DNA from: an uncultured Bacilli bacterium
GTDB taxonomy: Bacteria; Bacillota_I; Bacilli_A; RF39; UBA660
Assembly: GCA_944358305.1 (NCBI GenBank)
Contig: CALVQK010000001.1
Coordinates: forward strand, 163,103 to 227,102
Length of the DNA: 64,000 bases
Reading direction: 5' to 3'
Below are positions 2,865 through 36,419 of this stretch, one piece after another. The position numbers were made by a program, and so were the translations under genes. Position 1 is the stretch's first letter, and each line of letters opens with the position of its first letter. The notes under the pieces are model-generated. The model searched no databases, was not told where the DNA came from, and saw only the letters and a list, made by a program, of their open reading frames with translations.

Positions 2865-3872
2865 ATGATAGATAAATCATTTAAAGAAATATGCGATGGT
2901 ATTAAAAAAGGCGTTAAAGATACACAATTAGAAATTATGGTAAATGCTAATACTAATTTAGTTAATCTTTATTATAGAATAGGGAAAACTCTAGAAGAAA
3001 ATAGTAAGTGGGGTAATAAATTTATTGATACTGTTGCTTTCGAACTTAAAAATACATTTCCTACTTTAAAAGGATTTTCTATTCGTAATTTAAAGTATAT
3101 GAAAACATTTTATAATGAATATAAAGATGAAACTGAATTTGTGCAACTGGTTGCACAATTACCTTGGAAGCATAATATTACTTTATTCCAAAAAGTAAAA
3201 GATAAAAACATTCGTAAATGGTATATGGAAAAATGTTTAGAAGAAGGTTGGTCAAATAATATTTTAATCTATCAGATAGATGCTGATTTATATAAAAGAC
3301 AGGTAGAAAATAAAAAGCACAATAATTTCAAGATTACTTTAAAAGAAAATAGTGATCTTGCTAATAACATTATGAAAGAGCCTTATGTTTTTGATTTAAT
3401 AGAATTAACTGAAGATTATAAGGAAAGAGAATTAGAAAATAAAATGTTAGAACGTTTAAAAAATGTTTTATTAGAATTAGGTAGTGGTTTTTCTTTTGTT
3501 GGTAATCAATATAAAATTACTGTAGACGATGAAGATTTTTATATTGATTTGTTATTCTATCATATTAAATTAAAATGTTATATTGCCATTGAACTTAAAG
3601 TAGGAAAGTTCAAACCTGAATTTGGTAGCAAAATGGGATTTTATTTGACTGCTTTAGATGAACAAGTAAAAGATAATAATGATAATCCATCTATAGGTAT
3701 TATTTTATGTTCTAGTAAGAGCAATAAAATAGTAGATTATACCTTAAAATATATTAATAAACCACTAGGAGTTAGTGAATATAAAATATTTAATGAACTT
3801 CCTAATAACTTATTAAAAGATTTCCCAACGGAAGATGAATTAAATATCTTTATAGATTTAGATGAGGAGTGA
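2865..3872 (+). CDS. YhcG/DUF1016-family PD-(D/E)XK nuclease-like protein
   Basis: The N-terminal region matches the DUF1016 pattern (KWGNKFIDTVAFELKNTFPTLKGFSIRNLKYMKTFY). C-terminal PD-(D/E)XK-like core D..IAIELKVGKFKPE. RBS GGGGGAAG. Confidence 0.6.
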   Translation: MIDKSFKEICDGIKKGVKDTQLEIMVNANTNLVNLYYRIGKTLEENSKWGNKFIDTVAFELKNTFPTLKGFSIRNLKYMKTFYNEYKDETEFVQLVAQLPWKHNITLFQKVKDKNIRKWYMEKCLEEGWSNNILIYQIDADLYKRQVENKKHNNFKITLKENSDLANNIMKEPYVFDLIELTEDYKERELENKMLERLKNVLLELGSGFSFVGNQYKITVDDEDFYIDLLFYHIKLKCYIAIELKVGKFKPEFGSKMGFYLTALDEQVKDNNDNPSIGIILCSSKSNKIVDYTLKYINKPLGVSEYKIFNELPNNLLKDFPTEDELNIFIDLDEE

Positions 3873-3876
3873 TTTT

Positions 3877-4626
3877 ATGCATAATACTCTTGCTTTATTT
3901 ATAACTTTTCTTTTAGGATTTTTTATAGTTATAGGAGTGATAATAGCTTTTTTCTTAAAAAAACAGCAAAAAGTCTTAGATTTTATTTTTGCTTTTGCTC
4001 TTTCAATTCTCACAATGTTAATATTAACAGACTTACTAGGTCATACTATAGAACATTTAGGAATTAAGCATATTTATCTATTTATTCTCTTTACTTGTCT
4101 TGGCCTCTTAATCTTTAAAATAATAGATGATTTTATCCCTGAACATGACGATAGTAAAATGACTAAGAAAGAAGAACATAAAAATATTGTTCATATTGGG
4201 GTGCTTGCAACTATTGCTTTAATTATTCATAACTTTGTAGAAGGTATGGCAATTTACCTAACCGCCACTAATGATATTAACTTAGGTATAATGATGGCTT
4301 TAGGAGTAGGTCTTCATAATATCCCTTTAGGAATAATTATTACTACGACTTTAAATAATGGTGAAAAATTAGGTAAATATCTCTTTTGCATAATTTCTTT
4401 ATTTATTTCTAGTTTTATAGGAGGATTATTACTTTACTTATTAAATATTAATACTGTAAGTGATATAGTAATAGGATCTCTACTTGCTCTTACTATAGGT
4501 ATGCTTTTATATATTATTATCTTTGAGTTATATCCTAAAGTTAAGAAAACTTCCAATAAAAAGATTACTATTATAGGGTTAGGCTGTGGTATTCTAATTG
4601 CCTTGCTAGCAATGATAATAGGCTAG
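3877..4626 (+). CDS. zupT: ZIP-family zinc/metal transporter (ZupT-like)
   Basis: Eight-TM protein with the ZIP signatures HNFVEGMAI and GLHNIPLG. RBS GAGGAG upstream of ATG 3877. Confidence 0.75.
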   Translation: MHNTLALFITFLLGFFIVIGVIIAFFLKKQQKVLDFIFAFALSILTMLILTDLLGHTIEHLGIKHIYLFILFTCLGLLIFKIIDDFIPEHDDSKMTKKEEHKNIVHIGVLATIALIIHNFVEGMAIYLTATNDINLGIMMALGVGLHNIPLGIIITTTLNNGEKLGKYLFCIISLFISSFIGGLLLYLLNINTVSDIVIGSLLALTIGMLLYIIIFELYPKVKKTSNKKITIIGLGCGILIALLAMIIG

Positions 4627-35029: not shown

Positions 35030-35497
35030 TTAACTGTTTTTAGTTAAAGTCTTTTCTTTTTGATAACCATCTGCAAAGCTTTTCGCTTCTGTGAATAAAT
35101 CTATAGTTTTAGAGAAAGTTTCGTGTCCTTTATTATTATATCTATAATCTATAAAACTATCTTCATAATCTCTAACACTTTGATAATGAGCTGCAAATTG
35201 ATTAATATTTTCTTTAATAAAATTTGTTCTCAAGATATGTAATCCTTCACTTAAATCACTAACTAAAGTTAAGCCATTATTAATTGTTATATAATCAAGT
35301 CCATTATTACTTTCATTTTCTCTAACTGTCTCAAACTCTTCTTCTAAGTAATTAATACTTCTGCCAGCAGATATTAAAAAACGCCTTCTATCAAAACCGT
35401 TTAAAGTTTTATCTTGAGCTTTCTTTACTAATTCAAAAAATATATTTTCATGTAGGGCTACACTTTTTTCTTTTAAAACTTCAATCATTTCAATCAT
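35030..35497 (-). CDS. hypothetical protein
   Basis: 155-aa ORF divergent from the toxin-like gene. No family recognised. Confidence 0.4.
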   Translation of the reverse strand: MIEMIEVLKEKSVALHENIFFELVKKAQDKTLNGFDRRRFLISAGRSINYLEEEFETVRENESNNGLDYITINNGLTLVSDLSEGLHILRTNFIKENINQFAAHYQSVRDYEDSFIDYRYNNKGHETFSKTIDLFTEAKSFADGYQKEKTLTKNS

Positions 35498-35589
35498 AAA
35501 AACCTCCAGAAACTATTATACTGCAAAAGAAAGATAATCGCAAAAAAATTAAAGTATTTACTAAAACAAGACCTTATGATATAATAACA

Positions 35590-35619
35590 TTGTATTAAAT
35601 GAAAGGAATTTCATATAAT
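35590..35619 (+). promoter_or_regulatory. candidate promoter upstream of the tandem repeats
   Basis: TTGTAT-18nt-TATAAT. Confidence 0.3.
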
Positions 35620-35647
35620 ATAAAAGTAAGTGGATTTCTCTTACGAA

Positions 35648-35745
35648 AATGTCTGTCGCTTCTGGGTGGTGCGACTAATAAATGATCCCAATAGGCAATG
35701 TTTGTCGCTTCTGGGTGGTGCGACTAATAAATGATCCCAATAGAA
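35648..35745 (+). ncRNA. candidate type III antitoxin RNA: two tandem 49-nt repeats
   Basis: Unit 1 (35648-35696) and unit 2 (35697-35745) differ at 3 positions. Each holds a GC-rich hairpin GTCGC-ttctgggtggt-GCGAC, anomalous for this AT-rich genome. The repeats are followed by a terminator and then a ToxN/AbiQ-like ORF. Confidence 0.45.
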
Positions 35746-35747
35746 AA

Positions 35748-35785
35748 TAAAAGAAAGTTCTATCAATGATAGAATTTTCTTTTTA
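35748..35785 (+). terminator. terminator-like hairpin between repeats and toxin gene
   Basis: AAAGAAAGTTCTATC-aat-GATAGAATTTTCTTT (about 15 bp, one G:U) followed by TT. Confidence 0.5.
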
Positions 35786-35800
35786 AGTTTGAAAGGAACA

Positions 35801-35829
35801 TTGACGAACATATTTTTGTGTAGTATACT
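35801..35829 (+). promoter_or_regulatory. strong sigma-70-like promoter immediately upstream of the toxin-like ORF
   Basis: TTGACG-17nt-TATACT. RBS GAGGTG 7 nt before ATG 35866. Confidence 0.45.
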
Positions 35830-35865
35830 TTGGTTACAAATTATATATTTATGAGGTGTTAAAAC

Positions 35866-36333
35866 ATGAAAGTAAAAACAGGATATTTATACCATATTAA
35901 AGATGAATTTTTTGATGTTGTTAATGATGAAAATTTAATGGCTAATAAAGAAAAGGGACATAAACGTCCAACTTATTTTACTATAAGAGATAAAGATATA
36001 TTATGGTTTATACCTTTAAGCAGCAAGGTGGATAAATATAAGAAAATAGTTGATAAAAAAATTAAAAAATATGGTAAATGCAATACAATATTGATAAGAA
36101 AAGTTTTTGATGAAGAAAGTGCAATTTTATTGCAAAATACATTCCCAACTTTAGAAAAATATATTGATCATATTCACAAGAGAAATGGTAAGCCTGCTAA
36201 AGTTCCTTCCGTTTTGCAAAAAGATATAGAAAAAAACTTTAAATATATGATAGATCTGAAAAGACATGGTAATAATTTGTTCTTTACTGACATTGATAAA
36301 ATTAAAGAACAGATGTTAAAAGAGCTTAGATAA
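35866..36333 (+). CDS. ToxN/AbiQ-superfamily type III toxin-like endoribonuclease
   Basis: The 155-aa length and N-terminal pattern Y.Y.I.D.F.DVV....RPTYFTI....LWFIPLSSKVDKYKK match the ToxN/AbiQ core (..RPY.G.V.......YFAPLSSPK.KH) as I recall it. Tandem repeats plus a terminator lie upstream. Confidence 0.5.
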   Translation: MKVKTGYLYHIKDEFFDVVNDENLMANKEKGHKRPTYFTIRDKDILWFIPLSSKVDKYKKIVDKKIKKYGKCNTILIRKVFDEESAILLQNTFPTLEKYIDHIHKRNGKPAKVPSVLQKDIEKNFKYMIDLKRHGNNLFFTDIDKIKEQMLKELR

Positions 36334-36419
36334 TATATATATAGAAAAATTTTAGTAGTTTATAGAACTTTCTTTATTGATGTGTTAAAATATTTGATAG
36401 ATTAAAGAGGAGTGATACC

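Follow-up and report, generated by a model that had tools for sequence, protein, structure and literature searches.

A chromosomal CptIN-family type III toxin-antitoxin module upstream of dnaG-sigA in an uncultured gut Bacilli bacterium, with an apparent promoter for its toxin gene

In the published model for type III toxin-antitoxin systems, antitoxin RNA and toxin form a bicistronic operon with a single promoter, in which a terminator sets the ratio of RNA to toxin (PMC5086642, PMC3401426). The closest described relatives of the locus analyzed here belong to the CptIN family, whose repeats have a published range of 40-48 nucleotides (nt) and 1.9-3.4 copies (PMC3401426). CptIN has so far been shown only to stabilise plasmids; phage defence has not been demonstrated for it, even with more than 200 coliphages, whereas ToxIN and TenpIN do defend (PMC3401426, PMC4627078). 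We studied a 64,000-nt stretch of DNA from an uncultured Bacilli bacterium (the window; positions 163,103 to 227,102 of contig CALVQK010000001.1, assembly GCA_944358305.1), in which a short tandem repeat array is followed by a terminator and a 155-amino acid (aa) open reading frame (ORF). The initial annotation, made from the letters alone, had called this a candidate type III toxin-antitoxin locus. We think that call is right: with a probability of about 0.9, the locus is a chromosomal CptIN-family module, of an ordinary kind except that its toxin gene appears to have a conserved promoter of its own.

The toxin gene and its family

The ORF, cptN, encodes a member of the CptN family of endoribonuclease toxins. 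It matches the NCBIfam equivalog NF047359 ("type III toxin-antitoxin system CptIN family toxin") over the entire profile (1-150/150) with 169.5 bits and an E-value of 4e-50, against a curated cut-off of 90 bits; NCBI's own hidden Markov model (HMM) would already name the toxin as CptIN. Among solved structures, its sequence matches only one, CptN of Eubacterium rectale (CptN_Er; 4RMO_A; phmmer E 2e-20, residues 5-149). This is also the first-ranking Foldseek match to an AlphaFold2 model built from 35 homologues (predicted local distance difference test score, pLDDT, 83.8; predicted template modelling score, pTM, 0.78), with template modelling (TM) scores of 0.82/0.82, a root-mean-square deviation of 2.3 Å over 154 columns, and 34% identity. 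The matches that follow are MazF, MoxT, CcdB, and ToxN_Bt of B. thuringiensis (4ATO, TM 0.64). As modelled, the protein adopts the fold of CptN, which combines a twisted antiparallel beta-sheet and four helices and resembles Kid/MazF. Both the HMM search and the structure prediction proposed in the initial annotation lead to a type III toxin family.

We aligned the protein with CptN_Er, two plasmid-borne CptNs (Megamonas and C. perfringens), and members of its own subfamily. Ser52, Ser53, Lys57, Tyr58, Gln90, Pro94, Lys98, and Tyr99, among others, are invariant even across these distant CptNs. The active site of CptN_Er consists of a Ser51-Ser52-Arg53 triad with Asp81, Ser85, and Tyr104 arranged around the scissile adenine (PMC4627078). 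Its Ser-Ser-Arg becomes Ser-Ser-Lys in the window, with a Lys54 that does not vary within the subfamily. Ser-Ser is thus still followed by a basic residue, and Ser52-Ser53-Lys54 is the putative catalytic triad. The reading frame is intact, which supports selection on cptN.

The subfamily is large. We found 2605 homologous proteins, none usefully named (hypothetical or nameless in the source databases), and a scan of species-representative genomes yielded 350 loci with relatives, of which 80 were kept (67-79% identity; numbered below with the prefix L). Almost all of these 80 come from uncultured gut Bacilli or 'Tenericutes' metagenome-assembled genomes. A tblastn search of phage genomes gave no match to the toxin, and a plasmid search gave only eight distant matches, at 32-38% identity.

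The initial annotation had likened the protein to the ToxN/AbiQ family by its N-terminal core. The comparison has substance: a PxY(F/I)...(F/Y)xP(L/I)SS core is common to the protein and ToxN, hhalign aligns exactly that stretch, and ToxN_Bt is among the fold matches. The likeness, however, does not extend beyond the superfamily, and a system of the ToxIN/AbiQ family is refuted here as a highly improbable reading. Pfam PF13958 (ToxN_toxin) gives no match at E<=1, yet it recovers a true ToxN encoded at the related locus L037 with 164.6 bits; against that bona fide ToxN, the hhalign probability is 5.7%. Nor do the AbiQ models of PADLOC match. The best matches by sequence and by fold are to CptN, and the RNA has the layout of CptI, with a long A-rich loop L2 and a 49-nt unit.

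The CptI repeats and their pseudoknot

Tandem Repeats Finder (TRF) reports a single array at 35648-35743, with a period of 49, 2.0 copies, 97% matches, and a score of 185; the 49-nt unit was not found elsewhere within the window. Each unit holds a GTCGC-N11-GCGAC hairpin, the second copy lying 49 nt downstream of the first. These are the two tandem units that had been described at the outset, and the element is indeed starkly GC-rich: the G+C content in 50-nt windows is 40-46% over the array compared to 14-28% in its flanks and 28% in the window as a whole. Two repeats had been considered unusually few, but this number falls within the published CptIN range, with the unit length 1 nt beyond the 2012 range. 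Indeed, in 74 of the 80 related loci the array sits in the same place and consists of exactly two tandem units, each 48-52 nt long. The other six comprise three loci cut by contig ends, one with a single unit (L054), and two with a mobile-element insertion (L016, L045).

Covariation supports an H-type pseudoknot. In an alignment of 104 distinct units (A1), stem S1 is formed by columns 12-16 with 32-36 and stem S2 by columns 19-23 with 49-53, five base pairs (bp) each; because S2 pairs the loop of S1 with downstream sequence, the fold is an H-type pseudoknot. Pairing holds in 89.9% of cells, with compensatory two-sided changes in 9 of the 11 pairs. None of 500 shuffled controls came up to the values observed, and pairing fell to 25-53% when the 3' partners were shifted by one to three columns. 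Three pairs have no unpaired cell at all: 20-52 (CG 70, UA 34), 21-51 (GC 92, AU 12), and 23-49 (GC 55, AU 49). Repeats within one locus often differ by compensatory changes, as in L011, where CUGGA/UCCAG in one unit corresponds to CCAGG/CCUGG in the other. We also considered a sixth S2 pair (columns 18-54) and rejected it, since 82 of the 104 cells are unpaired.

Sequence comparison thus supports a pseudoknot in both window units, with two 5-bp stems and an A-rich loop, L2, whose AAUAAAU is almost invariant across the 104 units. The model rests on covariation because RNAfold cannot show pseudoknots in a single unit; run on the whole leader, RNAfold pairs the two repeats with each other. A search of the repeats against Rfam yielded no meaningful match, even at E<=10. 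The pseudoknot that the initial annotation suggested looking for therefore finds support in both stems.

The motif G-N-(A/C)-A-A-U is common to all three junctions at every locus. Processing would cut within the invariant A-A-U, most likely as A^AUG at 35648^49, 35697^98, and 35746^47, because cleavage in E. rectale occurs at GA^AAGUUU and a scissile adenine is needed. The 49-nt register given in Table 1 is likewise deduced, from CptI of E. rectale and the invariant junction motif. Related loci also hold a hairpin at the position of the window's leader stem-loop, built from different, compensating sequences (GCACUU/AAGUGU, ACAUUU/AAAUGU, GUAAGU/ACUUAC); it is probably a 5'-end stabiliser that would be removed by processing.

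Some arrays vary in form. L202, on the C. perfringens plasmid pCP346-91, has a 97-nt period at 294-535 in which two different units of about 47-50 nt alternate (A-B-A-B). In L045, remnant cptI units without a toxin (150-300) lie upstream of the intact locus.

Terminator, promoters, and genomic context

Repeats, terminator, and toxin gene follow one another on the + strand, an arrangement that matches the published type III criteria (PMC3401426). The terminator-like hairpin noted initially, which separates the repeats from the toxin gene, is predicted to act as a Rho-independent terminator. Its core, GAAAGUUCUAUC-aau-GAUAGAAUUUUC, has a 12-bp stem, a 3-nt loop, and U5 (-15.8 kcal/mol, RNAfold), and its column identity is 93% across 12 syntenic loci, the window and 11 others of the same genus. 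A consensus terminator scan missed this hairpin because it demands at least three G-C pairs.

The genes downstream of the locus are dnaG (TIGR01391, 432 bits) and rpoD/sigA (NF006666, 592 bits), as the initial annotation had them; hisS and aspS lie upstream. The position directly upstream of dnaG-sigA, with no effective terminator between cptN and dnaG in the window, would also suit a cis-regulatory leader of that operon, similar to an attenuator or riboswitch, followed by an unrelated small gene. We regard this as very unlikely given that the same cassette of repeats, terminator, and ORF occurs in about 70 loci without dnaG nearby, that the array has its own terminator, that no Rfam family matches, and that the ORF is CptN.

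The near-consensus promoter, ribosome-binding site (RBS), and 155-aa ORF are all present as first described (Table 1); in relatives, the RBS at the same position reads GGGGGTG. The predicted promoter between terminator and toxin, P2, is better conserved than its surroundings: in the 12 same-genus loci the -35 hexamer is 94% and the -10 hexamer 97% conserved, compared to 86% for the spacer and 79%, with indels, for the terminator linker. It stays next to cptN where the genomic surroundings are unrelated, and in L016 it lies downstream of an insertion sequence (IS). A promoter-like element occupies this interval in 73 of 75 two-unit loci of the subfamily, and the two that lack it are those with the shortest spacers. 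The elements fall into two classes: a long class, including the window, with 106-137 nt from array to ATG and TTGACR-17/18-TAnAnT, and a short class with about 75 nt, in which a TG-extended -10 (TGnTAnnnT) stands at a constant -25 relative to the ATG. In the distant cptIN loci of E. rectale (L123) and of the Megamonas and C. perfringens plasmids, the T-tract of the terminator runs into the RBS and leaves no room for a promoter, in keeping with the published single-promoter layout; the Megamonas array is 47 nt x 2.1.

The initial annotation had singled out a second promoter at this site as unusual, and the comparison bears this out: as read from these alignments, P2 is a conserved, clade-specific element of the subfamily and, as a promoter, would be a real departure from the published type III layout. 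A single promoter with toxin expression by read-through is typical of type III loci, not a published search criterion, and we found no type III system reported in the literature to have an internal promoter for its toxin. In both L016 and L045, an IS605-type element lies between the antitoxin terminator and a P2-type promoter, and cptN is intact beyond it; this natural arrangement hints that toxin expression is independent of read-through.

Two candidate promoters precede the array. The hexamers of P1a are 93-99% conserved in the 12 syntenic loci, and the segment containing the palindrome and the second -10 element, P1b, shows 97% column identity. Transcription from P1b, starting about 7 nt downstream, would begin at G35626, the base of the leader hairpin, and its geometry resembles the single TTGACA-17-TATATT promoter and hairpin of the short-class loci. 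The palindrome, ATGAAA-N4-TTTCAT, sits in the spacer of P1b, is perfect and invariant in the 12 loci, and is found again ahead of each type III array of the genus. Possible roles are as an operator bound by some regulator or as a 5' hairpin of transcripts from the upstream promoter.

Several observations weigh against our assignment of the locus to a working CptIN module. Pfam and PADLOC gave no match to the 155-aa ORF at E<=1, and PHROGs matched only the unnamed family phrog_33519. In CptN_Er, Tyr104 holds the scissile A in position and stacks on G44 (PMC4627078); in the window its place is taken by His104, invariant throughout the subfamily. The window protein retains equivalents of Asp81 and Ser85 (Asp82, Ser85), but these positions vary across the subfamily. 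Given these changes, cleavage specificity, and conceivably activity, may differ, and the toxin is possibly a family member with altered specificity. Both window units have a mismatched C-A at the outer end of S2, as do 13 of the 104 units, and the internal junction reads GGCAAUG, not GACAAUG, so that the exact cut cannot be fixed to one phosphodiester bond. A strong, dedicated toxin promoter lies outside the published single-promoter model (PMC5086642), and what is known of the locus and its subfamily comes from sequence and models.

Might the locus be a CptIN relic, its toxin attenuated or re-purposed (for instance as an enzyme for RNA processing, expressed together with dnaG-sigA) and its repeats merely retained? 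The loss of Tyr104 and of a conserved adenine cage would fit such a loss of function, but His104 and Lys54 are invariant over a very large subfamily in many contexts, which argues for a functional variant and not for decay. S2 is weakened in both units, yet the same C-A variant occurs in the intact loci L037, L050, L060, and L069, and the window repeats are 97% identical with both stems kept. A relic would also be consistent with the stable position of the locus in the genus and with a hairpin after cptN that reaches -11.7 kcal/mol in relatives but -2.9 kcal/mol in the window, from which read-through into dnaG may follow. Toxin and RNA, however, co-vary across loci, a pattern to be expected only where binding of the RNA to the toxin is still required. 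We consider a relic improbable and favour a CptIN toxin-antitoxin module.

The order aspS-orf272-orf155(-)-cptIN-dnaG-sigA is common to the window and the 11 same-genus loci, which include Candidatus Onthousia faecipullorum. Across these 11, identity to the window is about 94% for AspS (88-96%), about 95% for SigA, and 74-84% for DnaG, and only 72-79% for CptN. The other loci, about 70, lie in unrelated contexts; together with the shared site in the genus, this indicates a cassette that is mobile over long times and fixed at this site within the genus.

The spacer between cptN and dnaG (36334-36419) is homologous to the terminator and the TGTGTTAAAAT extended -10 of a second cptI cassette, as are its equivalents in L001, L003, L004, and L013. 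A complete orphan cptI array stands directly before dnaG in L003, L004, and L013, toxin-free, with its own promoter cassette, one or two units, and a terminator. Most relatives retain only the hairpin 3' of cptN, where it serves as the cptN terminator; because this hairpin has decayed in the window, cptN probably reads through into dnaG-sigA. One same-genus genome, L037, has a second type III system between cptN and dnaG (3500-4358), consisting of two repeats of about 37 nt and the 184-aa ToxN (Pfam PF13958) mentioned above; its toxI array is preceded by the same promoter/palindrome cassette, about 75 nt long, as the cptI array. The region upstream of dnaG looks like a hotspot for type III cassettes that share one promoter module.

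A more far-reaching reading is possible, and we offer it tentatively, as it seems to us rather doubtful. Toxin and antitoxin of the subfamily may be transcriptionally uncoupled, with a fully insulating terminator, a σA promoter driving cptN, and a ratio set by two promoters rather than by read-through. In the window, cptN, lacking its own terminator, might then be the first gene of a cptN-dnaG-sigA transcript, tying toxin dosage to the macromolecular-synthesis operon, and the site upstream of dnaG might serve throughout the genus as a landing site where type III cassettes with one promoter cassette in common (cptIN, an orphan cptI array, toxIN) settle.

Two further elements were seen near related loci. 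Between the cptI terminator and cptN, L016 (1-480) and L045 (575-800) contain a structured, non-repeat RNA of about 110 nt (GUACGGYAGCGACUNUCGGAA...) that has no match in Rfam at the gathering threshold. We considered it as a new kind of antitoxin and rejected this, since in L016 it adjoins the C-terminus of TnpB (PF07282, 73.9 bits); there it is probably the guide RNA or right end of an IS605-family element, and the L045 copy seems to be a gene-less derivative of one. Upstream of cptIN in the window, orf155 (35030-35497, - strand; 155 aa) is divergently transcribed, and searches of Pfam, NCBIfam, PADLOC, and PHROGs gave no match to it. Its identity between genomes is only 41-54%, where that of the neighbouring AspS is mostly about 94%, which indicates very fast evolution, and it is unlinked to cptIN outside the genus.

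Table 1. Positions of the features of the cptIN locus in the window
Feature	Position	Strand	Basis
P1a, upstream candidate promoter for the antitoxin transcript, TTTACT-17-TGaTATAAT (extended -10)	35557..35585	+	10/12 consensus matches, TG present
Palindrome ATGAAA-ggaa-TTTCAT (35599-35614) overlapping second -10 TATAAT (35614-19; P1b)	35599..35619	+	sequence, regular expression
Leader stem-loop GUAAG-N9-CUUAC, just 5' of first repeat	35626..35644	+	predicted fold
CptI unit 1, 49 nt, register of predicted processed RNA	35649..35697	+	TRF, alignment A1, covariation
Unit 1 S1	35655-59 with 35671-75	+	covariation
Unit 1 S2 (35662/35691 = C-A mismatch)	35662-66 with 35687-91	+	covariation
Unit 1 A-rich loop L2, UAAUAAAUGAU	35676-86	+	alignment
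CptI unit 2, 49 nt	35698..35746	+	TRF, alignment A1, covariation
Unit 2 S1	35704-08 with 35720-24	+	covariation
Unit 2 S2	35711-15 with 35736-40	+	covariation
Unit 2 L2	35725-35	+	alignment
Predicted intrinsic terminator, 16-bp A/U-rich hairpin (35749-35764/35768-35783), then U5 (35780-84)	35749..35784	+	RNAfold
P2, predicted σA-type promoter TTGACG-17-TATACT between terminator and cptN	35801..35829	+	consensus scan, 10/12 positions
RBS GAGGTG, 7 nt 5' of ATG	35853..35858	+	sequence
cptN, 155-aa CptN-family endoribonuclease toxin	35866..36333	+	NCBIfam, 4RMO match, AlphaFold2/Foldseek, alignments

Proposed mechanism and comparison with known systems

We infer processing, complex formation, toxicity, and trigger from the systems of E. 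rectale, C. catus, and R. torques, and the transcription starts, cleavage sites, stoichiometry, and biological role that follow are to be read in the same way. P1a, P1b, or both would transcribe a short precursor, comprising the leader hairpin and two 49-nt CptI units, that ends at the intrinsic terminator. CptN, an endoribonuclease of Kid/MazF fold, would be made from the downstream ORF, probably mainly via P2 and perhaps also by terminator read-through. It would cut the precursor at the junctions, within the invariant A-A-U, and each freed 49-nt RNA would fold into the H-type pseudoknot, with S1 formed by GUCGC/GCGAC and S2 by UGGG/CCCA and with the A-rich loop UAAUAAAUGAU packed in S1's minor groove. 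The pseudoknot would stay on CptN and occlude its active site, protein and RNA together forming a closed ring (in the E. rectale structure, 2:2). Should antitoxin synthesis stop, through loss of the locus, transcription shut-off, or possibly phage infection, the RNA would decay faster than the protein, and free CptN would cleave cellular RNA and arrest growth. Nothing in our results challenges the basic CptIN mechanism. The initial annotation had described systems of this kind as phage-defence modules; such defence is established for ToxIN and TenpIN, but the activity demonstrated for CptIN is plasmid stabilisation, and we raise abortive infection by this cptIN only as a hypothesis.

The locus adds a very large unannotated clade, of 2605 proteins and 350 loci in species-representative genomes and mostly from uncultured gut Bacilli, to a family so far represented by 33 loci and a single structure. 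Covariation among its 104 natural RNA variants validates the pseudoknot of CptI, and the variants also reveal the loop residues that are fixed. Should the internal promoter prove real, the textbook type III operon, with a single promoter and control by read-through, would fail for this clade, and the modelling of toxin activation after transcription shut-off would change.

The closest described system is the chromosomal CptIN of E. rectale (PDB 4RMO; Blower 2012, Rao 2015). The two share toxin family and fold (34-39% identity, TM 0.82), a Ser-Ser-basic active-site motif, and an array of two tandem repeats that is followed on the same strand by terminator and toxin. The RNAs are also alike: we rebuilt the 45-nt CptI of E. 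rectale (CptI_Er) from a published primer (PMC4627078) as AAGUUUACCACUGACCGAUAUGUGGUAUAUAAAUGGUCGGGUUGA, with a numbering that fits every residue named in that paper but one (C6 in the paper is U6 in the primer), and found it as exact tandem copies in human-gut metagenomes, confirmed in L123. Both RNAs form an H-type pseudoknot with a 5-bp S1 at positions 7-11, a short L1, and an A-rich L2, and both have A-rich junctions and 5' tails of 6 nt (AAGUUU in CptI_Er, AUGUCU in the window). Their L2 loops, AUAUAAAUG in CptI_Er and UAAUAAAUGAU in the window, have AUAAAUG in common; in the CptIN family the long A-rich L2 makes an A-minor twist, and the likeness seen here is one of sequence. The A29U and deltaU30 mutations in the shared segment of CptI_Er abolish antitoxicity (PMC4627078).

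The window differs from E. rectale in its longer unit (49 vs 45 nt), with a longer L2 (11 vs 9 nt), junction, and 3' tail; in the changes of Tyr104 to His and Arg53 to Lys; and in the leader hairpin before the array. It has 119 nt with a conserved predicted promoter between array and ATG, where in E. rectale the terminator T-tract runs into the RBS. Its host is an uncultured gut Bacilli bacterium of the Candidatus Onthousia group, with 28% G+C.

ToxIN of Pectobacterium and Bacillus thuringiensis and AbiQ/antiQ of Lactococcus follow the same logic, in which the toxin processes a repeat RNA into inhibitory pseudoknots and a terminator intervenes, and their toxins have a Kid/MazF-like fold with an active site of Ser/Thr-Ser-Lys type. 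They belong to another toxin family (the window protein has no Pfam ToxN match), and ToxIN units are shorter (34-36 nt), with pseudoknots of triplex type and heterohexameric complexes. Abortive infection is proven for ToxIN/AbiQ, in contrast to CptIN so far.

For a toxin gene with its own internal promoter besides the operon promoter, the nearest precedent is Axe-Txe, a type II system of enterococcal plasmids. Axe-Txe differs from the window in its protein antitoxin, its unrelated toxin, the absence of a terminator and of RNA processing, and the location of the promoter inside the antitoxin gene. There, the internal txe promoter is essential for setting the ratio of antitoxin to toxin (PMC3920265).

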